The notes under the pieces were generated by a model that was not told the DNA's origin, did no database searches, and saw nothing but the letters and a program-made list of their open reading frames with translations. DNA of 64,000 nt from Deltaproteobacteria bacterium. Lineage in GTDB: Bacteria; Myxococcota_A; UBA796; SXON01. Numbering within the stretch: the stretch's first letter is position 1; each line of letters begins with the position of its first letter. Location: positions 17,399 through 81,398 of the forward strand of contig CANLGL010000001.1 in the NCBI GenBank assembly GCA_947490345.1, in the 5' to 3' direction. Made by a program: the position numbers and the translations under genes. Positions 10,640 to 53,448 of this stretch are shown piece after piece.

Positions 10640-10747
10640 GGGGGAAGGAGGCGGGGCGCGGCCTCCCCCTACCGCGGCGTACCATCCGGCCTCCAAGCTG
10701 CGCTTTCCGGCCTGCGGTCCCGGGCGCGTTCGAATCACGCGTCGGGA
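10640..10747 (-). repeat. Composite REP-like structured intergenic element, copy a
   Basis: Contains the shared core TACCATCCGGCCTCCAAGCTGCGCTTTCCGGCC, flanked by a G-run/C-run hairpin and by hairpin GGCGCGT-tcgaatc-ACGCGTC. On the minus strand it reads GGTAGGGGG plus a hairpin. Confidence 0.7.
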
Positions 10748-13414: not shown

Positions 13415-16459
<3,045 letters not shown>

Positions 16460-16527
16460 GGGATTCCGGGGTCGGGAGAGTGTACCCGCAATGCCCGCCG
16501 GAAGGTGAATCGATCGGCTGCGGTTAG

Positions 16528-17694
16528 ATGCCCGGCCCCGTGTTCTTGCATCGTCTTTTCTATGTTTTGCAGTTGGGCTCGATGGCCGCGTTGTTGCCCC
16601 TTTTGGGGGGGCGCTTCGAAGCTGCGGGTTTCGACGGGCTGACGATCGGCGGTTTGATGGCGACCTTTCCGCTCGGTCGCCTGCTCGCCGCGCCTTTTTG
16701 GGCGGTCCTGGCCGATCGGTACCGCGTGGCGGGCCTCGTGCTCCGATTGTCTGCGGTCCTGTCCGGTGTCGCAGGGATGGCGTTGGCGCGATCGGAGTCC
16801 ATCCCAGCCTTGGCGGTGGCGATCTTCGTCTTCGCGGCGACGCGCGCGCCGATCGGCTCGGTGCTCGACGCCCTCGTGCTGGGCCGGTTGGCTGAGCTGG
16901 GCCGTCCGACGGCGGAGTACGGACGGATTCGGTTGTGGGGGTCGCTCGGGTTTCTGGCCGGCGTGCTTCTGGCCAGCAACTGGGTGGCGACGGGCTTGCC
17001 GCCGCACCTGCTCGCCGACGCAACGCTCGCGGCGGCCGCCGTGGTCAGCTTCGGCTTTCCGCTGCGAGGGGCCGGTGGGCCCGCTCCGATCATGCCGGCG
17101 CTGCGGGAGCTTGCGGCCTCCCCGTTCCTGGTGCCGCTCCTGGTGACCGGCGCGCTTCAGGCGCTCACGATGTCGGTCTACGACACCTTCTTCTCGGTCC
17201 ACGTCGCTGCCCTCGGGTTGCCTGAGGGCGTCGTCGGCGCGTCGGTGGCGCTCGGGGTCGGCTGCGAGGTGCTCTTGATGAGCTTCGGGCGCCCATTCTT
17301 GCTGCGCGTGGGACCGGCGCGGGGTCTTTTGCTGGCGGCGCTCTCCGGGATCCCCCGCTGGTTGGTCACCGCCACCGTCAGCGATCCCGTCGTGTTGGTC
17401 GCCATCCAGGCGCTCCATGGTTTCGGCTTTGCCCTCTTCTGGCTGTCGGGGGTCCACCGCATGGCGCAGGCCGCGCGGCCAGAGATCGCCGCGTCATCCC
17501 AGAGCCTCTGGGCGGCGGCCACCTACGGCTTTGGCGCGTTGGTCGGGGCGGGGCTGGCCGGGTTCGCGCGTCGTGAGCTGGGCTCGGACGGGATATTCTG
17601 GATGCTCGCTTTCGTCTCGCTCCTGGCGACGGTGAGCGCGGTCTGGTTGTGGCGGGTGGATCGAGCTCACTTCGCCGGCGGGCCGGCGCGCTGA
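16528..17694 (+). CDS. MFS transporter
   Basis: 388 aa with about 12 hydrophobic helices. MFS-like loop motif FPLGRLLAAPFWAVLADRYR. Confidence 0.8.
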   Translation: MPGPVFLHRLFYVLQLGSMAALLPLLGGRFEAAGFDGLTIGGLMATFPLGRLLAAPFWAVLADRYRVAGLVLRLSAVLSGVAGMALARSESIPALAVAIFVFAATRAPIGSVLDALVLGRLAELGRPTAEYGRIRLWGSLGFLAGVLLASNWVATGLPPHLLADATLAAAAVVSFGFPLRGAGGPAPIMPALRELAASPFLVPLLVTGALQALTMSVYDTFFSVHVAALGLPEGVVGASVALGVGCEVLLMSFGRPFLLRVGPARGLLLAALSGIPRWLVTATVSDPVVLVAIQALHGFGFALFWLSGVHRMAQAARPEIAASSQSLWAAATYGFGALVGAGLAGFARRELGSDGIFWMLAFVSLLATVSAVWLWRVDRAHFAGGPAR

Positions 17695-36123: not shown

Positions 36124-37239
36124 TCAGGGAGCGTAGTCGACCAGGCAGACGGAGCAATATGGTTTGGACGTATCGTAGGCGATGACGATGCGATCGGAGA
36201 ACGCGGGGACATGGGGTCGATTCCCAATTGACGCGACTCTTCGCTGGAGGTGCCGATGGCGTGGGCTCGCCGCGTCCCAAACCCACGAATCGAGCGTGCC
36301 CACCTCGCCGGAGACCGGCGGCAGCGAGATCGTCCGCCAGCACCAGAAGCTGAGCGCCGGCAGCGAAGGGATCACGGCACGCATCGGCATCGCATACCCG
36401 CGGTCCACGCGGGAGCGTACAACCGCGGCCTCCGTCACTTCGAACGCTGCGTCCAGGCGGACCTGTTGTATGACGCTTGCGGCCGACGGGGCCAAGGTCG
36501 ACGGGACCAACAACACGTACGGCTCTGCCGCTGTAGCCTCGTAGTAGGCCGAGCCGCCGTTCGCCATTGGGGTCCCCGCCAGCAACCCCAGCGGATCCGT
36601 CACCATCCCGACCGCAACGTCGGGGAGGGACGGGTCGGCGGCGGTTGCCTCCACCAACGTCAACTCCTCGCCCGCCCTGGCCGGGGGGAACGTCTTGAAA
36701 AAAATCACCACACCGGTGGGCGTTTCGCACATGAACAGGTCGTTCGTGGCGACGTTTGTGGCTGCGGCGACCGAGCGGTATAGGCGGGTGGGTCCGGTGA
36801 CCACGGCGAGCGAGTCGTCCAGGGTGAGCAGTCCGATTCCGACCCCGTCGGCGCCGTCGGCCATGGAAAAGGCAATCCAGTGGCGCCCGTGGGCATAAAT
36901 GTGCCAATGATCCGCATGCGAGGTGGGCGTGCGGAATGCGCTATCCACGGGAAACTGGGCCAGGGCGTCGGTCAAGGCGAGCACCTGCTGCCAGTCCGTC
37001 TCGGTGAGGGTGCCCACGTCGTCGATCGCGCAGCGGACGACGAAGATCCCGCCACCCTGCGTCCGCTCACCTGACCACACCGGCGCCTCCCCGCCGTCAT
37101 CGACAGCGAAGAGCCAGAGTTGAACACCGGGTACCCGAACGGTGGTGAAACTCGCGAGGTCGATTGGCTCGTCCACCCACCCGGGGAGGATCGGCCCCAC
37201 AGGTCCACCCGCGTCCACTCGACCGGGTACGACGATCAT
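36124..37239 (-). CDS. Hypothetical protein (371 aa), third gene of the small-protein operon
   Basis: ATG at 37239 overlaps the upstream stop (ATGA). Beta-rich sequence with no signal peptide. No motif recognised. Confidence 0.6.
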   Translation of the reverse strand: MIVVPGRVDAGGPVGPILPGWVDEPIDLASFTTVRVPGVQLWLFAVDDGGEAPVWSGERTQGGGIFVVRCAIDDVGTLTETDWQQVLALTDALAQFPVDSAFRTPTSHADHWHIYAHGRHWIAFSMADGADGVGIGLLTLDDSLAVVTGPTRLYRSVAAATNVATNDLFMCETPTGVVIFFKTFPPARAGEELTLVEATAADPSLPDVAVGMVTDPLGLLAGTPMANGGSAYYEATAAEPYVLLVPSTLAPSAASVIQQVRLDAAFEVTEAAVVRSRVDRGYAMPMRAVIPSLPALSFWCWRTISLPPVSGEVGTLDSWVWDAASPRHRHLQRRVASIGNRPHVPAFSDRIVIAYDTSKPYCSVCLVDYAP

Positions 37240-38516
37240 CGCCCGCCCCACATCTCGAAGGGGTGGAGGCTCGCGATGCCCCACCCATCGTCGCCGCAGG
37301 CTTCGGTAAACGTGGACGCCAGCAGCGACACCTCCCCGCTCGGCGGCCGCCTCGGCACGAGCCCTCGGCCCTGATATTCAGACCAGAACACAAGAGCTGC
37401 GTCCGCTCGTGAATAGGACCCGGGTTCGATGACGAACAAGTACTGAGGTTGTTTATGGGGATAGCCAGGCTCGGTAGACAATGGGGGGTCGGTTTCGATC
37501 AACTCTGGGCGAGCGTCGCCCTCGGTGTCGACTGCGGTGGCCCACAACGATTCCTCCACCGTCATGAACACGGCTGGGCCCGACGCCCCACCCTCCCACA
37601 CCGTCACGCCATGAACTCCGCCACGATCTGGCGCGCTGAAGCCTGACGTCACCATGTCGGCTGTTCCATCCCCGGTCAAATCCGTCGGCGAGTCGAACAG
37701 ATTCGCACCCTGAAACAGCACCCCTTCGGCCGCGTCGACGAAGAGGGCGCCGGAAACGGGGCCGTGGAACACGCTGGCCGGTTGGGCCGCGTCGGTCAAA
37801 AGGAGGTCGTCGACGCCGTCGCCGTTGACGTCGCCGGCGAAAATATAGCCCAACATCTTGACCGGTTCGTCGCCAAACCACGCGTCCGCGTCCGTCGGCG
37901 TGTACCGGCCCGGCGCCGGGCCGTGGAATAGGGCGAGGTCCGATCCTATGGGATAGCCGTCACCCCACTCCCAAGTGAGCACTGCGAAATCGGGCACGTC
38001 GTCGCCGGAAAGGTCGTTGGCACCTAAGGCGTCGACCACCTTATCTCGAGTGTCCGGGTTGGTTGTGTAGACCAACCAGGGATCCGCCTCGCCGGGCCGA
38101 ACGGCACGCACTTCCTCGTCGAGGTCAATCATGTACCCATCGGTCGTAGGTGCGAGGAACGACATGCGCTCCTCGCCCGCGTCGCGGGCGAACGCGCTCA
38201 GGTTCCATTCGGCTTGCACGCCCGAGATGACATCTGACCACTCCAACAGATCGCCCGATTCGGCGGAACGCAGGACGACCGTGCCGTCGCCAGCTACGCC
38301 CCAGGTGGGGTCAGCGCCCGGTGCCCCGGGTGCCGCGCACAAAACGTCGGTCGCGTTGGCCGCGTCGAACTCGCAGTTGACCCCGGTGGTGCAGGGGCAG
38401 GAGAGCCCGTAACAGGACTCCGCGGTGTCAGCGACGACCGGCTCCGGCACCGTTGGCGCCGGGCAGCCGGTGAGGGCGGCTAGGGCCGCCGCCTCAGCAC
38501 GAATAGATGTCCACAT
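37236..38516 (-). CDS. Lipoprotein with FG-GAP/VCBS-like repeats
   Basis: Lipobox in MWTSIRAEAAALAALTGC. Repeats GDVNGDGVDDLLL, DLTGDGTADMV and DLSGDDVPDFAV. The N-terminal region is Cys-rich. Confidence 0.7.
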   Translation of the reverse strand: MWTSIRAEAAALAALTGCPAPTVPEPVVADTAESCYGLSCPCTTGVNCEFDAANATDVLCAAPGAPGADPTWGVAGDGTVVLRSAESGDLLEWSDVISGVQAEWNLSAFARDAGEERMSFLAPTTDGYMIDLDEEVRAVRPGEADPWLVYTTNPDTRDKVVDALGANDLSGDDVPDFAVLTWEWGDGYPIGSDLALFHGPAPGRYTPTDADAWFGDEPVKMLGYIFAGDVNGDGVDDLLLTDAAQPASVFHGPVSGALFVDAAEGVLFQGANLFDSPTDLTGDGTADMVTSGFSAPDRGGVHGVTVWEGGASGPAVFMTVEESLWATAVDTEGDARPELIETDPPLSTEPGYPHKQPQYLFVIEPGSYSRADAALVFWSEYQGRGLVPRRPPSGEVSLLASTFTEACGDDGWGIASLHPFEMWGGR

Positions 38517-38877
38517 TGCCGCCCGCCGCGATGCCAAGGAGCACGTTGTCCGCCGCGTTGTTGTAGGCCAGATAGCCGAACCGGATGAGTTGCTTTCCGG
38601 TGGTCGCCGCCGAGATGTCCGTCCTCACACCCCGATGAAAGCCGTCTGCCGTCGGCGCGTTTCCGATGGCCACCGCCGGCTCGACCTCGGTTTCGGAGTT
38701 CGCCACCTGGTATGCGAAGCGCCGCTTTGCGTCGGCTTGCATCGCGGCCACCTCGTACATCGCCCGAACCCACTTGACGTCACTGGCGTCAATCCACGCC
38801 GTGCGCGGTACGAACTTCGCGTTGGCCTCATTGCGGAACAGGTGGACGGAGCCCCAAGACAGTGTCATGCGTTTCAT
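38494..38877 (-). CDS. Small hypothetical beta-rich protein P1 (127 aa), first gene of a three-gene operon
   Basis: AGGAG lies 10 nt upstream of the ATG at 38877 (MKRMTLSWGSVHLF...). Third-position G/C is relaxed relative to neighbours. The 3' end overlaps the lipoprotein start by 23 nt. Confidence 0.65.
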   Translation of the reverse strand: MKRMTLSWGSVHLFRNEANAKFVPRTAWIDASDVKWVRAMYEVAAMQADAKRRFAYQVANSETEVEPAVAIGNAPTADGFHRGVRTDISAATTGKQLIRFGYLAYNNAADNVLLGIAAGGNVDIYSC

Positions 38878-42345: not shown

Positions 42346-42369
42346 CGCCGTCCTCCGGAGGGGACGGCG
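42346..42369 (+). terminator. GC-rich hairpin downstream of the lipoprotein gene (no U-tract)
   Basis: CGCCGTCC-tccggagg-GGACGGCG lies 21 nt after the stop codon. Confidence 0.3.
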
Positions 42370-42423
42370 CGGTAGGGGGGAACCGCGAAGCGGTGCCCCC
42401 CCTCTCACAAGGAAGCGGTGCCC
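42367..42423 (+). repeat. Short REP-like element, copy e1
   Basis: GCGCGGTAGGGGGGAACCGC-gaa-GCGGTGCCCCCCCTCTCACAAGGAAGCGGTGCCC. GTAG is followed by a 12-bp stem with one mismatch. Confidence 0.7.
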
Positions 42424-42889
42424 GCGGTCAAGCACCGGCGTGGAGGAGGCGGCTGGAGAAGATGTGCTTGCCCGGCAGCGCGTGGCCGCGATCCGCCGCG
42501 CCGAGGCGCGGCGGGCCGAACCGCTTCGGAGCGCCGAGGCGGTGCCGACGGCGCTGCTCGCGGCGATCCTCGCGCGCCTGGAGATGGTGCCCCCGGCCGC
42601 CGGCGGCGCGCCCGCGTGGCTCGTCGAGGCGATCGGGAACCCGCTCACCTTCTTCTATGAGGCGGCCGTTGGTGTCAAGGTGAGAGTCGTTCTTTTTCCT
42701 CGGTGTTGAGCTGGGCGCGCGGGGGCTGGGGCCCTGCGCTGGTTGCCGTTCGCCCCGGTTGCCGGTCTTTGTCGTGGGGGCCTCCACGGTCGCCGTTGGC
42801 GGTCGCCGGGTGCGGTGCTGGCAACCCGCCTTGGCGGACGCTGTTCTTCTTCGGCGCCTTCTTCGACGAGGTCGTCCCGTTGCCCACGC

Positions 42890-43378
42890 TGTCGACGACG
42901 CCGGACTGGTCGCGTCGCGGGACCAGTCCCAGGTAGGCCGCAGCGGTTCGGCCGTCGGGAAAGCGTGGCGGGTCCTCGATCGTCAAGACGAAGGCGAGCG
43001 CCGTGACGGGGCCGACGCCGCGCACCTGGCGCACGATACGCCCCTCCGGGAACTGGGTCTCCAGCATGGCCTCAAGTTGGGCGTCGTCCCGACTGCGAAG
43101 CACGGTGAGGCCGAGCTCGCGGGCCTCGGAGCGGTGCTCGATCGGGTGCAGAAGCGTCGCGTCTGCGCAGGCCAGCTTCGCCGGGTGACCCAGCCCGACT
43201 GCGCCCCGGCCTCCATCGCGACCTTCGCAAAGCCTTTTCCTTCAAAAGCCTCTCGGACTCCCTCGGGGGTCATCGAGAATTCGAACCAGCCCACCACCAC
43301 CCCTGGCGTGTAGATGCAGGCCACGGAAGTGCGGTCCCCGAGATCGACGCCGACGGTGCAGGTGCGATGATCGTTCAT
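42890..43378 (-). pseudogene. Decayed IS110-family transposase (frameshifted, internally deleted, C-terminally truncated)
   Basis: The N-terminal piece is MNDHRTCTVGVDLGDRTSVACIY...KVAMEAGAQSGW. After a frame change near 43195, the Transposase_20-like piece is VRGVGPVTALAFVLTIEDPPRFPDGRTAAAYLGLVPRRDQSG. About 100 aa of the catalytic domain and the C-terminal ~70 aa are missing. Confidence 0.7.
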
Positions 43379-43739
43379 GGCCGGTGACTCTGTTGAGCTT
43401 CGCTCTATTCAGGATGCACAATGTGCTCCGCGTGGAGCACCGGCCGCCTCATCCATCTTTCCTCGGGGGAGAGATGTGAGCGCGCGGGGCGGTGGCGCGG
43501 GTAAGTCGCAACTCGGCGGGCGCTTCGTTGGCAGGCGCAGGTGGCGGAGTGGTCCTTCGTCGGGATGTGCTGGCCGGGTCAGCGCCACCCCGCCACTCGC
43601 TTCTGTACCGCGCGCGCGACCGAAGCTGTCGCGAGGAAGAAAAGGTGCTTAGAGCGAGTGGCGTCCCGACACGATTGTGCTACGGTGAGCGCAGCTGGGG
43701 TTCACGCGCTTGGGTTCACCACCCAACACAGAGCGTACG

Positions 43740-44129
43740 ATGTCCTGTACTGATTCCAAGACCCTCGGCCCCATCCCCGTCTGGTCCAACAAGACGAACA
43801 ACACGTGGTTGTTCCATCCACTTTCGGCGCCGCAGCCGTCGACCGGTGTGAACTTCGCCAGACCCACCCTCGAGGTTGCCCAGTCTAGCGGCGCGATCAA
43901 AGTGCGTCCCGTGGTCCGGTACTCCAACGACATGCAGACGTGGGATGGGCCGTTCGCGATCGACGCCGCGAACATGACGCAGACCAACGACGGCGTGAAG
44001 TTCGGTACGTTCACCGACATCCAGGGTGGCGCCAAGAACTTCCTCCAGTGGGGGGTGGAGGTGACCGACAGTGCGGGCACCCCCACCGAACTCGCGATGG
44101 TCAGCCTTCGCGTCGACACCAAGGCCTGA
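43740..44129 (+). CDS. Small hypothetical beta-rich protein P2 (129 aa), first gene of a three-gene operon
   Basis: ATG at 43740 (MSCTDSKTLGPIPVWSNK...). Composition is more A/T-containing than the surrounding DNA. Weak by-eye similarity to P1 at 38494..38877. Confidence 0.6.
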   Translation: MSCTDSKTLGPIPVWSNKTNNTWLFHPLSAPQPSTGVNFARPTLEVAQSSGAIKVRPVVRYSNDMQTWDGPFAIDAANMTQTNDGVKFGTFTDIQGGAKNFLQWGVEVTDSAGTPTELAMVSLRVDTKA

Positions 44130-44132
44130 CCG

Positions 44133-44483
44133 GTGGTCGCCCCCAATTGGGTGTACACTGGCGCCGCGAGCGCGGGGTCGGTGGTGACGCGTCTGGGGCC
44201 TGCGGTGGCTGCCACGACTCCGTGGTCGGCCGTGGTCGCGCTGGCGGCTCGCGTCGACAAGCATGGCGACATGACCTGCAGCGAACTTGCAGACGACCAT
44301 GCTAGCCATAAGAAAATGGAAGCGTTTGCCGACTCCATCAAGGAGACAGACCCAGAGCTGTCGGCCGCGATCCTCGAGCTGAGCCGGGCGGGCCGAAACG
44401 AGGTCGTAAGCCTCGCGTGCGCAAAGGGCTGCACCTGGGCGAAGGCCCTCGACCTGTGCCATGGCTCGGACCGCAACAGCTGA
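44133..44483 (+). CDS. Small hypothetical protein with a C-terminal Cys/His cluster
   Basis: GTG lies 3 nt after the P2 stop. The C-terminal half is MTCSELADDHASHKKMEAFADSIKETDPELSAAILEL...LACAKGCTWAKALDLCHG. An alternative ATG start lies at 44269. Confidence 0.45.
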   Translation: MVAPNWVYTGAASAGSVVTRLGPAVAATTPWSAVVALAARVDKHGDMTCSELADDHASHKKMEAFADSIKETDPELSAAILELSRAGRNEVVSLACAKGCTWAKALDLCHGSDRNS

Positions 44484-45342
44484 ACGCGGGGCCGCTGGCG
44501 CGCGGCGCCCGCCCGCGCGCCAGCGTGGCGTGCGTGCGCTCCTCGGTGGCCTTCTGGTCTCCAGCGGCACGATGCTGTTCGTCGGACGGTGGCGCGAGGA
44601 GCCGCGATCACCCGCTGGCGCCCACGTCTCCGCCTCCGCTGAGCAACCGATTCGCCGCGCAGCACGTCGTGAGCCGCAGGCGGTCACCGCTCCCGACCCC
44701 TCGGCCCGCGCCCCCGAGGCGCCAGCCTCCGGCCCAGACGGCCTGAGGCTGGTGGCATGCCGGTTCGTCGGGGAGCCCGAGGCGACCGGGCAGTTCTATC
44801 GGGAGACTCCTGACGAGAGCCCGCCCGCCGCGGAAGGGGTAGCCATGCTTCACAACGGGACGCTTGGTTTCTACGCGAGTAGCGACGCGGGCGAAGGAAC
44901 GGTGGACTTCCGCGACCGGCTCCGGGCCCGCGTGACCTGGGCGCCGGAGCCAGGTGAGTACGCGCGGCGGTGTACGGTGGGAGAGATCGTGCGCTACGAG
45001 GCGACGCTGCTCCTCAGCGTCCCGGGCGCGCCGGGCAGGGTACGGATACTCACCTCGGAGGGAGAGCGCGTTGTCAGGGGGAGCGGTCCCCACGAGCTTC
45101 GTTTTCCGGTGACCTCGGTCCTGGTACAGGTCGCCACGTGGTCTGAGGGCCGGGTGTGCGCCTCGCCCGAGTTGCCCGTCGAGTTGCAATGGGCGGGCGT
45201 GACCAGCCTTGAGGTCGAGCTACCCGAGGAGCCGGGTTGTCGGGCACCAAACGAAGACGAAGCGCGCTGGGATGAAGACGACGCAGCCGACCTCGAGTGG
45301 GCGTATGCGTTTTTGGACCTCAACCCGCCGGCGGAGGAGTGA
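44461..45342 (+). CDS. Single-pass membrane protein with an extracytoplasmic beta-rich domain (hypothetical)
   Basis: Arg-rich N-terminus and TM segment VRALLGGLLVSSGTMLFVG. Overlaps the preceding ORF by 23 nt. Confidence 0.6.
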   Translation: MARTATAERGAAGARRPPARQRGVRALLGGLLVSSGTMLFVGRWREEPRSPAGAHVSASAEQPIRRAARREPQAVTAPDPSARAPEAPASGPDGLRLVACRFVGEPEATGQFYRETPDESPPAAEGVAMLHNGTLGFYASSDAGEGTVDFRDRLRARVTWAPEPGEYARRCTVGEIVRYEATLLLSVPGAPGRVRILTSEGERVVRGSGPHELRFPVTSVLVQVATWSEGRVCASPELPVELQWAGVTSLEVELPEEPGCRAPNEDEARWDEDDAADLEWAYAFLDLNPPAEE

Positions 45343-45433
45343 CGCGGGCCGGAGACTCGGTGCGGGGGCCACGGCCCCGCCTGGCGGATAGATGGGATGA
45401 GGCGGCCGGTGCTCCACGCGGAGCACATGGACG

Positions 45434-45492
45434 CCGCGGCAGGGGGGAACCGCGAAGCGGTGCCCCCCCTCCCACAAGGAAGCGGTGCCCCC
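45434..45492 (+). repeat. Short REP-like element, copy e2
   Basis: GCCGCGGCAGGGGGGAACCGC-gaa-GCGGTGCCCCCCCTCCCACAAGGAAGCGGTGCCCCC, nearly identical to 42367-42423. Confidence 0.7.
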
Positions 45493-45494
45493 TC

Positions 45495-46403
45495 TCAGAG
45501 AATCGTCTTGCCTAGTGCGCTCATCAACAGCCACACGGCAAGGCGGCCCGTGCGGTTTTCGCTGTCGATGACTGGGTTGAGCTCGACCATCTCGAGCCCG
45601 AGCACCTTCCCAGTGGCGGCCACTTTCTCGCAGATCAGGTGGGACTCGCGCAGGCTGAGCCCGCCTGGCACCGCCGTACCCACGCCCGGTGCGTGTTGGG
45701 GGTCGACGCCGTCGAGGTCGAAAGACAGGTGGATGCCGACCGTGCCGTCGGTGCAGCGGTCGATGGCCTCGCGCACGCAGAGGGCGGTGCCGCGCTCGTC
45801 CAGCTCGCTCATGGTGTAGACACGCAGCCCGACCTCGCGGACAAAAGCGCGCTCGCCGGCGTCGACGTCTCGGGCGCCGACCACACAGACGTTGCGGCCG
45901 TCGAGCGCCGGCCGGTCTCCGGCGAGCGCGACCAGCTCAGGAGGCCCGTGACCCAAGAGCACGGCAAGCGGCATGCCGTGGATGTTGCCGGTCGGGGACG
46001 AGTCGGGGGTGTTCACGTCGGTGTGCGCGTCGACCCACAACACGCCGATTCGCTTGCCGCGCTTCCGCCAGTAGCGCGCCATCCCGCTGATGGTGCCGAT
46101 CGCCACCGAGTGGTCGCCCCCCAGCACCACCGGCAGGTGCCCGGCTTCGAGTGCGGCTTCCACCCGATCGGCCAGCTGGGTACACACGCGGGTGATCTCG
46201 GTGAGATAGCGCGCGTGCTCGTCGCCAGACTCGATCATCTCCTGGGTGCGCACGCCGAGCGCGAATGTCTCGGCAACCTCGATTCCAAGCGACTGTACCC
46301 CCGGCTTGAGCCCGGCCAGGTGGATGGCGGAGGGACCCATGTCGACCCCGCGTCGGCCGGCGCCGAGGTCCATGTGCACGTTGCCGATGACGATCGAGCG
46401 CAT
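45495..46403 (-). CDS. rocF: Arginase
   Basis: Collinear with the RocF-type arginase sequence as I remember it: MDLGAGRRGVDMGPSAI, VVLGGDHSVAIGT, WVDAHTDVNTP, GNIHGMPLAV, SFDLDGVDP and GLSLRESH. Confidence 0.9.
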   Translation of the reverse strand: MRSIVIGNVHMDLGAGRRGVDMGPSAIHLAGLKPGVQSLGIEVAETFALGVRTQEMIESGDEHARYLTEITRVCTQLADRVEAALEAGHLPVVLGGDHSVAIGTISGMARYWRKRGKRIGVLWVDAHTDVNTPDSSPTGNIHGMPLAVLLGHGPPELVALAGDRPALDGRNVCVVGARDVDAGERAFVREVGLRVYTMSELDERGTALCVREAIDRCTDGTVGIHLSFDLDGVDPQHAPGVGTAVPGGLSLRESHLICEKVAATGKVLGLEMVELNPVIDSENRTGRLAVWLLMSALGKTIL

Positions 46404-49314: not shown

Positions 49315-49454
49315 GGGGAAGGGGCCTGCGGCACCTTCCCCTACCGCCGTCTACCCTCCGGCCTCCAAGCTGCGCTTTCCGGCCCACGGCAGCGGGCGGG
49401 TTGAATAACCCGCCCGCCGGGCGACTCTCCCCATCCCGCCCAGCCGCAGAGCGG
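49315..49454 (-). repeat. Composite REP-like structured intergenic element, copy b
   Basis: GGGGAAGG...CCTTCCCC hairpin, core CTACCGCCGTCTACCCTCCGGCCTCCAAGCTGCGCTTTCCGGCC, hairpin GCGGGCGGGTT-gaat-AACCCGCCCGC and tail CTCCCCATCCCGCCCAGCCGCAGAGCGG. Confidence 0.75.
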
Positions 49455-49551: not shown

Positions 49552-50082
49552 GTGAAGCTCTCTCAGCTCCTCACCCTGGCCAGCGCCCTGTCCGCGCTCC
49601 GGCTCGTGCTCGCAGGAGTCCTGCCGCTGTTTCCGCCTGAGTTTTGGGTAGCGGTGTACGCCGTCGCGATCCTGACTGACGTCCTGGACGGGCCGGTCGC
49701 CCGGCGGACCGGGGTCGCCTGTCCGGCGGGAGCTACCCTGGACGCCTGGGCCGACAAGGCGCTGCACGTCAACACCGCGTGGGCGCTGGTGCTCGGCGAC
49801 GTGGTCCCGTCGTGGTGGCTGCTCCTTTGGTTCATCCGGGAGATCATCCAACTGCCGATGGTCTTCATCTTCGCCCACCGGTGGCGGACCGGCGTCGGCA
49901 TGCCGGCAACCCGACCGCTCGGTCAGGCCACATCGATCTCGCTGGCGGCGACGATCGCGCTCGCCCTCGTCGGGATTCCGTCATTGTGGGCCACTGTGCT
50001 CGTCGGTGCGCTCGGCCTTGCTGCGGGAATGGATTACGCGCGGCTACACTTCTCCACACTCCGCCTGGTCGAGGTCCCATGA
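49552..50082 (+). CDS. CDP-alcohol phosphatidyltransferase family protein (small, 176 aa)
   Basis: GTG start. Family motif D-x2-DG-x2-AR...G-x3-D-x3-D in TDVLDGPVARRTGVACPAGATLDAWADK. Hydrophobic helices. Confidence 0.8.
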   Translation: MKLSQLLTLASALSALRLVLAGVLPLFPPEFWVAVYAVAILTDVLDGPVARRTGVACPAGATLDAWADKALHVNTAWALVLGDVVPSWWLLLWFIREIIQLPMVFIFAHRWRTGVGMPATRPLGQATSISLAATIALALVGIPSLWATVLVGALGLAAGMDYARLHFSTLRLVEVP

Positions 50083-52013
50083 AACTCCTTCCCCTTGTGC
50101 TGCTGCTCGGTTGCACCGGCGCCGCCGTCGTGGACGACACCACCGACCACTTCCCGGACGACGAGGACGCCGACGGGTACACTGCCGAAGAGGGGGATTG
50201 CGACGACAACGATCGTGCGGTGAACCCCGGCGCCGCGGAGGTCTGGTACGACGGCTTCGATCAGAACTGTGACGGCGCCGACGACGATGACCAGGATGGC
50301 GATGGCAGCAAGCTAAGTCGCGACTGTGATGACACGGAGCCGGAAGTGCGTCCTGGCGCCGACGAACTGTGTGACGGCATCGACAACGATTGCGATGACC
50401 AGATCGATGACAACCCGGTTGACGGCGTGCCGGCCTATGGCGATAGCGACCTCGATGGCTGGGCGGCAGACAATGCCAACGAGATCCAGGTCTGCGACGC
50501 GGCGGCGCCGGGCCTGGCGACCCAGACCGGCGACTGCGATGATCGTGACGCCGACGTCGCTCCGGACGCTCTCGAGCTGTGCAACGGTGAAGACGACGAC
50601 TGCGACGACGCCATCGACGAGGACGCCGTGGATCCCGACCAGTGGTGGATCGACGCCGATGGCGATGGGTTTGGTGTCGGGACCGAGTGGGTAGTCGGCT
50701 GTACCCAGCCGTTGGGCTACGCATCCTCGTCCGAGGATTGTGACGACGCCCGCGCGGATGCCAACCCCGACGCAATCGAGCTGTGCGACCTCGTCGACAA
50801 CAACTGCGATGGCACCGTGGACAACGACGCTTTCGATGCCACCACCGTCTACACCGACGCCGACCTGGACGGCTTCGGCGTCGATGGCACCGAGGCGACG
50901 GCGTGCGCGTTCAGCGGCGCAGCGGTGGGCGGGGACTGTGACGACGCCAACGCCTCGACGTACCCCGCCGCGGCCGAGCTCTGTGACGAGCTCGACAATG
51001 ACTGCGACACCGAGGTCGACGAGGATGCCTTTCCGGTCGATTATTACGTCGATGGCGATGGGGACGGCTTCGGCGCGGGCTCCTTGGTGGGGACCGATTG
51101 CATCATCCCCGCCGGTCACGCCACCAACGATGCCGACTGCGACGACGGGGACGCCGCCGTCTCGCCCGTGGCGATCGAGATGTGCGACGGCATCGACAAT
51201 GACTGTGTCGGTGACCCCGACGACGGCGCCGTGGACGCATCCACCTGGTACCTCGACGAAGATGCGGACGGCTTCGGACTCGACGATGACAGCGTCAGCG
51301 GCTGTGCCGCGGCGGGCGACCACAGCGCGATCGTGGGGGGTGACTGTGACGACTCGGACGACGCGGCTTACCCGGGAGCGGCGGAGCTCGACGATCTCCT
51401 CGACCAGGACTGCGATGACCTGGCGGACGAGGACTTCGTGGTTGCCGGCGACCTGGTCATCAGCGAGATCGCTCGGCAGACCTGGATGGGCGGTGCCTCG
51501 ACCGACACCGGCGGGCAGTGGTTTGAGGTCTACAATGCCTCGGCTCGCGACGTGGTACTCTCGAACTGGGTGATCGCGCGAACCAGCGCGGTCGGCACCG
51601 ACAGCTTCCTCGTCGAGGACACGGCGCCGACGCTGGCCGCAGGCGAACTTTTCGTCTTCTGCGCCAGCGACGTCTTCACCATCGACAACGACGCCAACAG
51701 CCTGTTGGCTTGCGACTACGTCTGGACGGATTCCGGGTACCCCGACACCTACGAGGGCACCTACCGGGACAACACCTTCCACCTCCAGCGCGACGCCGAT
51801 GGGCTCTCCCTCGCCCTCGACGGGCGCACGGTCGACGATGTGACCTGGGACGCGACCTGGCCCGCGGGCGCCACCCAGTCCATGACCCTGGACGGGGCGG
51901 CCCTGGACGCCACCAGCAACGACGACTCCCTCAACTGGGACATGGAGTTCGACTACGACTGGTGGAACGACGGCGCGAGCAGCCCTGAATACGGGACGCC
52001 CGGCACGTTCTGA
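50079..52013 (+). CDS. Lipoprotein with MopE-like Cys/Asp repeats and a C-terminal lamin-tail (LTD) domain
   Basis: ATG at 50079 overlaps the preceding stop (ATGA). Lipobox in MKLLPLVLLLGC. Repeats CDGIDNDCDDQIDD, CNGEDDDCDDAIDE, CDLVDNNCDGTVDN and CDELDNDCDTEVDE. The C-terminal LVISEIARQ...QWFEVYNASARDVVLSNWVIA is LTD-like. Confidence 0.8.
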   Translation: MKLLPLVLLLGCTGAAVVDDTTDHFPDDEDADGYTAEEGDCDDNDRAVNPGAAEVWYDGFDQNCDGADDDDQDGDGSKLSRDCDDTEPEVRPGADELCDGIDNDCDDQIDDNPVDGVPAYGDSDLDGWAADNANEIQVCDAAAPGLATQTGDCDDRDADVAPDALELCNGEDDDCDDAIDEDAVDPDQWWIDADGDGFGVGTEWVVGCTQPLGYASSSEDCDDARADANPDAIELCDLVDNNCDGTVDNDAFDATTVYTDADLDGFGVDGTEATACAFSGAAVGGDCDDANASTYPAAAELCDELDNDCDTEVDEDAFPVDYYVDGDGDGFGAGSLVGTDCIIPAGHATNDADCDDGDAAVSPVAIEMCDGIDNDCVGDPDDGAVDASTWYLDEDADGFGLDDDSVSGCAAAGDHSAIVGGDCDDSDDAAYPGAAELDDLLDQDCDDLADEDFVVAGDLVISEIARQTWMGGASTDTGGQWFEVYNASARDVVLSNWVIARTSAVGTDSFLVEDTAPTLAAGELFVFCASDVFTIDNDANSLLACDYVWTDSGYPDTYEGTYRDNTFHLQRDADGLSLALDGRTVDDVTWDATWPAGATQSMTLDGAALDATSNDDSLNWDMEFDYDWWNDGASSPEYGTPGTF

Positions 52014-52070: not shown

Positions 52071-52208
52071 GTGGGGGACTGCGGTGAGGGGGAGAGCGCC
52101 ACGCGCGGCGCGTTATCCAACGCGTCGGGCGCCGGAGGCCGGAAAGCGAAGCTTGAAGGCCGGAGGGTATGGCGCGGTAGGGGGAGAGGCCGGCGAGGCC
52201 TTTCCCCC
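52071..52208 (+). repeat. Composite REP-like structured intergenic element, copy d (opposite orientation to a-c)
   Basis: GGCCGGAAAGCGAAGCTTGAAGGCCGGAGGGTATGGCGCGGTAGGGGGAGAGGCC-ggcga-GGCCTTTCCCCC, preceded by the hairpin CGCGTT-atcc-AACGCG. Confidence 0.75.
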
Positions 52209-53276: not shown

Positions 53277-53448
53277 GGGGGAAGGGGCGGCGCCCCTTCC
53301 CCTAGCGCGCCATACCCTCCGGCCTCCAAGCTTCGCTTTCCGGCCTCCGGCGCGCCGCGCGTTCATAACGCGCGACGACGCGGCGCTCACCCCATCCCGC
53401 CCAGCCGCAGAGCGGAGCGCAGCTGCGGTTTCCGGCCTCCGGCGCCCG
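53277..53448 (-). repeat. Composite REP-like structured intergenic element, copy c, plus a partial second core
   Basis: GGGGAAGGGGC-g-GCCCCTTCCCC, core CTAGCGCGCCATACCCTCCGGCCTCCAAGCTTCGCTTTCCGGCC, hairpin GCGCGTT-cat-AACGCGC and tail CTCACCCCATCCCGCCCAGCCGCAGAGCGG. A partial repeat GCAGCTGCGGTTTCCGGCCTCCGGCG follows. Confidence 0.75.

Follow-up and report, generated by a model that had tools for sequence, protein, structure and literature searches.

A 64,000-nt stretch of a deltaproteobacterial contig (CANLGL010000001.1), called the window below, contains at positions 43740 to 45342 a cassette of three genes, the first of which encodes a protein of 129 amino acids, P2. The three genes are one real, translationally coupled operon, and P2 is the founding member of a family of small jelly-roll proteins that no database has annotated so far and whose fold is ordinary. 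P2 remains tightly coupled to its two downstream genes across deep divergence, and a sharp boundary between conserved and variable sequence lies inside the second gene. Because of this conserved/variable pattern, the patchy distribution and the repeated gene loss, a role in conflict or in self/non-self discrimination appears to be the most likely one, and we tentatively suggest that the triad may be a membrane complex in which a conserved cytoplasmic jelly-roll is combined with diversifying outer parts, acting in conflict or recognition.

The cassette and its jelly-roll protein

The cassette comprises the following features (aa, amino acids; ORF, open reading frame).

43740-44129, + strand: P2, 129 aa by ORF call, a single jelly-roll of the M-x-C subclass described below and the first gene of the operon
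44133-44483, + strand: gene 2, an ORF of 116 aa with a GTG start 3 nt past the P2 stop codon
44461-45342, + strand: gene 3, an ORF of 293 aa that overlaps gene 2 by 23 nt
43696-43723, + strand: tandem 14-nt direct repeat (TGGGGTTCACGCGC / TTGGGTTCACCACC) within the conserved 45 nt 5' of P2

P2 starts with MSCTDSKTLGPIPVW; it has a Cys at position 3, no hydrophobic N-terminal stretch and no signal peptide. The gene-2 protein, which includes LACAKGCTWAKALDLCHG, is laid out as about 22 conserved first codons, a hydrophobic patch that includes a Trp and a C-terminal half that varies, has four Cys and one His and ends in the pattern C-x3-C-x8-C-H. Gene 3 encodes one N-terminal hydrophobic segment (residues ~25-42, with hydropathy peaks at residues 27-41), a Pro/Ala-rich linker and a beta-rich C-terminal part. 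None of the three proteins had a match in Pfam, PHROGs, NCBIfam or PADLOC, and the sequences of genes 2 and 3 had none in the PDB. A first-pass annotation, made by a model from the letters of the window, had described the three ORFs with this spacing, a P2 without signal peptide, a single-pass gene-3 protein and the lack of any recognisable domain, and on each of these points the analysis bears it out.

The 14-nt tandem repeat ends 17 nt before the P2 start codon. It is kept in the window and at two of the related loci found in other contigs (numbered with L), namely L001, which has three copies, and L005, and it is absent from L004. It is presumed to be a regulatory site, likely one for a transcription factor. 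A scan for promoters and terminators gave scores no better than those of shuffled sequences, and Rfam gave nothing at gathering score in the whole window and a single chance match below threshold between 42200 and 45700. The TGA stop codon of P2 and the GTG of gene 2 share a frame and are one codon apart (44127-44135). A conserved P2-gene 2 fusion by stop-codon read-through was rejected, as the two are in frame only in the window, L027 and L005 and not at six other loci.

P2 is a real gene under purifying selection, since its pairwise dN/dS is 0.14-0.34 and its substitutions relative to L027 are biased towards the third codon position (6, 4 and 25 at positions 1, 2 and 3). A word-indexed search detected 11 close homologues, 63-100% identical, the full-length ones having 129-130 aa. 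All of them come from metagenomes or metagenome-assembled genomes (MAGs), at least one labelled Myxococcales, and the window, too, is therefore probably from a Myxococcota-like MAG. The same type of search with the family alignment retrieved 19 proteins. A profile search among 1.84 billion cluster representatives extended the family to 308 clusters (at 50% identity) with E ≤ 1e-3, 109 of them with E ≤ 1e-10.

Several subclasses were distinguished among the best 159 hits of the profile search. The M-x-C subclass (38 of the 159) begins with M-(S/A/G)-C and is ~130 aa long; a Cys occupies profile column 3 in 37 of the 38, and the next-commonest Cys column, 109, is filled in only 7. Members of a signal-peptide-like subclass (23 of 159) are extended at the N-terminus and have paired Cys at profile columns 53 and 120. 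Tandem two-domain members of ~265 aa account for 37 hits and the remaining single-domain members for 59. These features fit a cytoplasmic location of the M-x-C class and export of the signal-peptide class. P2 itself is probably cytoplasmic, because it lacks both a signal peptide and the Cys pair that marks the exported subclass. Family members may also be clustered: in L025 (8362-15131) there are four, and a unit made up of a 132-aa jelly-roll, an alpha/beta-hydrolase-like protein and a HAF-repeat protein is duplicated there, and in L024 (8590-9801) a 133-aa member lies directly 5' of a tandem member of 266 aa.

An AlphaFold (AF2) model of P2 built with a 70-sequence alignment is an all-beta single jelly-roll with pLDDT 92.8 and pTM 0.83; an earlier model from the 11 close homologues had a pLDDT of 57 and was discarded. 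The first-pass annotation had proposed a Foldseek search with such a model, and had named a match to well-characterised families, such as phage structural proteins, as evidence against its reading of the cassette as an accessory module. The search, run against the PDB and BFVD, returned generic jelly-rolls only. The matches were birnavirus VP2 (E 1.6e-5, query TM-score (TMq) 0.57), the endospore-appendage subunits Ena3A and Ena2A (8pdz, 9i0y; E ~2e-4, target TM-score (TMt) 0.50), the carbohydrate-binding module (CBM) CBM86, the N-terminal lectin of BC2L-C, small viral coats, PirA and a TNF, together with uncharacterised phage proteins with TM-scores ≤ 0.64. At the level of sequence, the only echo of the family is a hairpin motif, S-x-D-G-x-T-W, which also occurs in a carbohydrate-binding protein, galactose oxidase, BNR-type proteins and, weakly, F5/8-type-C domains; the profile matches to the PDB entries 6n1a and galactose oxidase align over this motif alone. 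Membership in the F5/8 type C (discoidin, PF00754) family was rejected, as 3 of 70 family members match it with a best E of 0.0077. No characterised family was thus matched, and with P2, the close-family alignment (A1) and a tandem member (P0027) as queries, no relative was found in 50,697 phage genomes, plasmids or IMG/VR.

The window contains two P2-family members, P2 itself and P1, which heads a separate operon.

38494-38877, - strand: P1, a divergent paralogue of P2 according to hhalign and hmmsearch
37236-38537, - strand: lipoprotein-like FG-GAP protein of 433 aa in the P1 operon, with a weak FG-GAP_3 match
36124-37284, - strand: protein of 386 aa in the P1 operon

P1 is 24% identical to P2 across 115 aa by BLASTP (E 1e-4), aligns with the 70-sequence family profile in hhalign with a probability of 98% and E 2.9e-13, and is detected by hmmsearch with E 2.6e-17. 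The three methods agree that P1 is a true paralogue of P2 and a member of the same jelly-roll family, and a weak likeness that had been noticed by eye is thus borne out by profile-profile comparison. P1 had also been said to head a three-gene operon, which agrees with the two overlapping ORFs of 433 and 386 aa found 3' of it on the same strand. P1 is not of the M-x-C type, and its operon contains the FG-GAP protein and the 386-aa protein instead of a small Cys protein. Searches of the P1-operon proteins against Pfam, PHROGs, NCBIfam and PADLOC gave nothing significant.

Gene order and variability across nine loci

The order M-x-C jelly-roll, small Cys-containing ORF and ORF with a transmembrane or lipobox-like start was found at nine independent loci (the window, L001, L004, L018, L019/20, L027, L009, L022 and L031), at which the jelly-rolls are 34-88% identical to P2 of the window. 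The second ORF encodes 89-129 aa and begins at most 5 nt past the jelly-roll stop codon or overlaps it by 1 nt, and the third ORF adjoins or overlaps the second. One M-x-C member, in L024, is an exception, as it is followed by a tandem family member.

The gene-2 proteins evolve fast. They have in common an N-terminal motif, x-V-Y-x-G...S-x-G-S, and the Trp-containing hydrophobic patch, and most have 6-10 Cys within their last ~50 residues. They are joined only by a weak chain of pairwise matches with E values of 1e-3 to 1e-8, for instance 3e-5 between the window and L018 and 8e-8 between L001 and L018, and past their N-terminal half any pairwise similarity is weak at best. The gene-3 proteins are of unrelated types that start with a lipobox-like or transmembrane segment. 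Those of L001 and L018 are homologous (37% identity, E 7e-20) and that of L027 resembles them by eye, whereas no relative was detectable for the rest, that of the window included. A relationship between the gene-3 proteins of the window and L031 was rejected, and a helical type of gene-2 protein common to the window and L031 was a likeness by eye for which BLASTP found nothing.

The boundary inside gene 2 is seen in the DNA. The DNA of L027, the closest relative, is homologous to that of the window (83%) only in positions 43714-44198, that is P2 and 22 codons of gene 2, and with L001, L004 and L005 the similarity does not extend beyond P2 and at most 45 nt 5' of it. With L001 and L005, the conserved DNA starts at 43695, 45 nt 5' of P2.

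No flanking gene is common to any two cassette lineages, and the cassette is neither core nor syntenic; a core, syntenic cassette is what the first-pass annotation would have counted against its accessory module. It is neighboured by genes for DUF2330 and a CusB/Czc-type resistance-nodulation-division (RND) pump in L001, an aminotransferase and a non-ribosomal peptide synthetase in L004, an HNH protein in L022, and a beta-lactamase-fold protein and a transporter in L031. Debris of IS21 and of a group II intron and an extracellular contractile injection system (eCIS) locus surround it in L027. The genes around the cassette of the window are ordinary chromosomal ones (SbcCD, ketoacyl synthases, a TonB-dependent receptor, a histidine kinase), and a defence-island context was thus ruled out. 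P2 has become inactive independently in three lineages, each time through another kind of lesion: a 41-nt deletion in L005, a nonsense mutation (W68 to TGA) in L027-L030 (18 contigs) and a truncation in L021. The nonsense P2 of L027 (9001-18204, also L028-L030) is located between the IS21/group II intron fragments and a full eCIS locus with Pvc16_N, two sheath genes and a gp19-type tube gene. A role as an eCIS accessory was rejected, since the adjacency is found in this one lineage only.

Possible roles of the triad

P2 and the products of genes 2 and 3 may assemble into a three-protein, membrane-associated complex. P2 would be its cytoplasmic component, a single jelly-roll with a free N-terminal Cys, and would dock as the conserved partner onto the conserved N-terminal ~20 residues of the gene-2 protein. 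The variable and usually Cys-rich C-terminal part of the latter would lie at or beyond the membrane, together with the anchored or lipoprotein product of gene 3. These outer parts, the gene-2 C-terminus and gene 3, would be the ones that are swapped out or diverge quickly, and they might act like a small toxin of the polymorphic kind, or a surface determinant, that is paired with a membrane protein as its immunity factor or partner.

The arrangement recalls the polymorphic toxin or bacteriocin-immunity systems (CdiA-CT/CdiI, Rhs-CT/RhsI, myxobacterial SitA/SitI), in which a conserved N-terminal part is likewise joined to a sharply variable C-terminal part (in gene 2, with the edge at 44198 relative to L027), the next gene is variable and membrane-associated, the occurrence is patchy, losses are common and debris of mobile elements lies close by. 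However, the variable protein of the cassette has just ~90-130 aa, and gene 2 encodes neither a lipoprotein escort domain nor an Rhs core nor a VENN or PxxxxDPxGL demarcation. Moreover, the operon begins with an additional gene, for a strongly conserved jelly-roll. Pfam, NCBIfam and PADLOC gave no match between a cassette protein and any family of toxins or immunity proteins. No delivery machinery (type V or type VI secretion system, Rhs, lipoprotein escort, ATP-binding cassette/C39 exporter) is encoded around the cassette in the window, and an eCIS is adjacent in L027 only.

Several further observations weigh against a complex acting in conflict or recognition. Toxin, immunity, secretion and defence domains were not detected in the three proteins with Pfam, PHROGs, NCBIfam and PADLOC, nor with the PDB for genes 2 and 3, and the neighbours of the cassette in the window include no dedicated exporter. 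Export of the gene-2 protein is uncertain, because its hydrophobic patch is short (9-15 residues). The first 66 nt of gene 2 have no third-position bias (5/4/7), and its status as a coding sequence is therefore derived mainly from positional conservation. The L031-type cassette lies in the same housekeeping-looking context in all assemblies shown for it, and for this reason resembles a system with a stable role in the cell more than one of conflict. The Cys patterns of gene 2 would suit metal binding in the cytoplasm equally well.

The last point leads to a role in metal handling, which we consider unlikely. Gene 2 would encode a metallothionein-like protein or metallochaperone, P2 would contribute a Met-x-Cys ligand and gene 3 the membrane anchor, for the buffering or hand-over of Cu, Zn or Cd. 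The gene-2 equivalents of L001, L018, L019 and L027 have 6-10 Cys per ~50 residues with CxC and CxxC spacings, gene 2 of the window ends in the Cys/His pattern given above, and Cys3 is the sole conserved Cys of the M-x-C subclass. In L001-L003, moreover, the cassette is directly 5' of a gene for a CusB/CzcB-type membrane-fusion protein, followed by the RND pump gene in L001 (the contigs of L002 and L003 end there). However, this efflux neighbour is found in one lineage only and the other eight contexts have no metal genes. The profiles of HMA, CusF and metallothionein gave no match, and the rapid non-orthologous turnover of genes 2 and 3 would be unusual in homeostasis. The regular C-x7-C spacings would also suit a disulfide-knotted extracellular mini-domain.

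The P2-family jelly-rolls might instead assemble into a fibre, a lattice or a capsid-like shell, as Ena, TasA and viral single and double jelly-roll capsids do, with cross-linking through the Cys and with genes 2 and 3 as anchor or nucleator. The Foldseek matches to birnavirus VP2, viral capsids and Ena3A/Ena2A, the 37 tandem members and the paralogue clusters of L024 (133 + 266 aa) and L025 (four members) agree with such self-assembly, and so does the short N-terminal extension with its conserved Cys, which is Ena-like. The Ena subunits (DUF3992; Ena1A/B, Ena2A, Ena3A) have in common with P2 a length of ~110-130 aa, a BIDG/CHEF single jelly-roll, a short Cys-bearing N-terminal extension and the lack of a signal peptide. 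They need a Cys-Cys motif in an N-terminal connector and a further two core Cys to form disulfides between subunits (10.1101/2020.08.21.260141), whereas in P2 and most M-x-C members Cys3 is the only one and the core has no Cys. DUF3992 was not matched in P2 with Pfam at E up to 1, nor in 70 family members at E up to 0.1. Moreover, the P2 homologues are found in MAGs, at least one of which is labelled Myxococcales, and not in endospore-forming Bacillota, and the operon partners are unrelated.

Viral single jelly-roll capsids and cellular modules (CBMs, TNF/C1q-like lectins such as BC2L-C-Nt, PirA) likewise resemble P2 in having eight strands and ~130 residues, and the P2 family also has tandem two-domain members. 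Their TM-scores relative to P2 are just 0.4-0.64, however, with sequence identities of 8-17%, and lectins, CBMs, TNF and PirA score like the capsids, which is indicative of a generic fold only. A cytoplasmic protein with a single thiol would be unable to make a disulfide-linked polymer. The neighbours of the cassette are cellular genes without a packaging ATPase or virion gene among them, and the phage and IMG/VR searches with the queries named above had found no relatives. Self-assembly is thus improbable.

Less probable still is that P2 alone is functional and that genes 2 and 3 are just chance ORFs of GC-rich DNA, or decaying ones, rather than parts of a three-gene system. They have no database homologues, their third-codon-position GC (GC3) of 78-80% is below that of housekeeping genes, the start of gene 2 lacks third-position bias and long spurious ORFs are common in the window. 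However, a small ORF followed by a membrane-protein ORF with start/stop coupling recurs at nine loci although the DNA there is dissimilar. The homology between the gene-3 proteins of L001 and L018 is clear, E values of 1e-5 to 1e-8 connect gene-2 proteins, and a GC3 of 78-80% matches that of the P1 operon and of genes for Cu-binding_MopE repeats in the window.

If the conflict or recognition complex is real, a conserved cytoplasmic jelly-roll set against quickly replaced outer parts would be a new small module among bacterial conflict and recognition systems. The family itself comprises 308 or more clusters at 50% identity and combines a confident fold with a three-gene order that is reproducible; it is unnamed in the databases and would merit a definition of its own. 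Its single-domain, signal-peptide and tandem forms all occur in cellular genomes, which bears on the debate about a cellular ancestor of jelly-roll capsid proteins. A wider claim would hold that the family is a lineage of single and tandem jelly-rolls that is widespread in cells and had gone unrecognised, that the M-x-C triads are a new envelope-spanning conflict or recognition system and that Cys3 is the working residue, for instance for acylation, thiol-linked attachment of a partner or metal sensing; taken together, this is unlikely to hold. The gain would be smaller if the cassette were merely a conserved hypothetical operon with a housekeeping role in the envelope: P1 and P2 would be annotated as paralogues, and the IS110 element and the low GC content treated below would be discounted as evidence of recent transfer. 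The rest of the probability goes to a function outside all the readings given here.

Composition, the IS110 remnant and other elements of the window

The first-pass annotation had taken the cassette for a horizontally acquired accessory module, on account of its lower GC content, its tight coupling and its position next to a dead insertion sequence (IS) of the IS110 family. The raw GC content does dip, as two 400-nt windows, with starts at 43600 and 43740, reach only 61.8% and 63.0% and are among the lowest 1-3% of a window with 69.3% overall. At the codon positions, P2 has a GC1 of 52%, a GC2 of 50% and a GC3 of 85.4%, and is in the latter indistinguishable from the flanking housekeeping genes (84-88%, with 86-87% in those of FKBP, arginase and aldehyde dehydrogenase). 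The dip is due to the non-coding stretch and to the amino-acid composition of P2, a protein rich in Asn, Thr, Ser and Lys, and composition does not speak for a recent foreign origin. Gene 3 has 71% GC, and the GC3 of genes 2 and 3 is, as mentioned, that of the P1 operon and the MopE-repeat genes. Composition is therefore no proof of recent transfer, because the GC3 of P2 is at the host level. The accessory and coupled nature of the module is upheld by the varied contexts, the three losses and the mobile-element debris here and in L027, but neither the composition nor the IS110 element as a vehicle argues for its acquisition.

The cassette is bracketed by repeats, which the first-pass annotation had not noticed. 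The IS and these repeats are the following.

42652-43463, - strand: decayed IS110-family element with a frameshifted transposase (Transposase_20), its ends defined by loss of similarity to L007
45386-45428, + strand: lone 43-nt copy of the terminus of the IS left end, which is inverted compared with the IS and continues without a gap into the right direct repeat
42362-42430, + strand: left copy of a 69-nt direct repeat, with a GC-rich hairpin in it, just 3' of a 242-aa gene
45429-45497, + strand: right copy of the 69-nt direct repeat; it overlaps the arginase gene, which is convergent, at its stop codon

The dead IS110 element next door is real. Its transposase matches Transposase_20 with E 3e-12 and DEDD weakly (E 0.13), and it can be compared with an intact relative in another MAG, L007, whose transposase has both DEDD_Tnp_IS110 and Transposase_20 (both E 1e-17). 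The remnant is 91% identical to L007 in the first 284 nt of DNA, lacks ~730 nt of its internal sequence and has 12-nt subterminal inverted repeats; it ends at ~42652 (right end, ...TTGACACCAACGGCCGCCTCATAGAAG) and ~43463 (left end). Two features of L007 (1-2718) recall the IS1111 group, namely ~450 nt of non-coding DNA past the transposase gene and subterminal inverted repeats of 12 nt, and this IS adjoins a gene for an IS91-like Y2 transposase. In the window, an ORF at 42440-42651 (+ strand), which starts with MEEAAGEDVLARQRVAAIRR... and has no Pfam match, runs into the right end of the IS, and the IS may have inserted into an earlier gene and truncated it.

The cassette sits between the left end of the dead IS and the solo inverted left-end fragment, which is 97.7% identical to positions 3-45 of L007, where that contig begins. 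A perfect 34-nt inverted repeat (43421-43454 / 45395-45428) was rejected as the terminal repeats of a cassette transposon, as L007 shows it to be an IS110-family left end. The copies of the 69-nt repeat, the left one of which is 220 nt outside the IS right end, are 91% identical and the only two in the window, with 0 expected by chance. The IS and the repeats point to a putative scar of a second IS copy that was followed by deletion or rearrangement, that is, to an IS-linked rearrangement, and a Campbell-type integration at the hairpin repeat is conceivable.

The IS110 remnant is a bystander, neither the carrier of the cassette nor a part of the system: it ends 276 nt before the P2 start codon, and the conserved DNA of the cassette starts at 43695, 232 nt from the IS end, or with L027 at 43714. 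In the IS110-family element ISPpu9, duplicated 43-bp (A) and 16-bp (B) end boxes mobilise a neighbouring module (PMC12288879), there with ssr9, and here, too, an IS110-family element has its 43-nt left-end box duplicated past an adjacent non-IS module, so that inverted left ends flank the cassette and the 69-nt direct repeat brackets the whole block of 3.07 kb. That the cassette is a passenger moved in this way is nevertheless very improbable, as the duplicate is inverted and no right-end box lies beyond the cassette, so that excision as a circle is not expected, the transposase is dead, the other cassette loci carry neither IS nor boxes, and the DNA conserved between loci begins well outside the IS.

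Two other kinds of repeats were observed in the window. A repeat family of ~83-124 nt has four copies, at 10662-10744 (+), 49315-49454 (+), 53292-53415 (+) and 52086-52206 (-), and has no Rfam match. A copy with 85.6% identity is located at L027 3561-3684, a MAG locus that is otherwise unrelated, just 5' of an amidohydrolase gene, and the element could be a conserved promoter, 5' untranslated region or repetitive extragenic palindromic (REP)-like element. Finally, two large proteins made of Cys-rich Cu-binding_MopE repeats are encoded at 13415-17023 (-) and 49779-52013 (+) with a period of 198 nt, one of them ending in a C-type lectin domain and the other in a lamin-tail domain.

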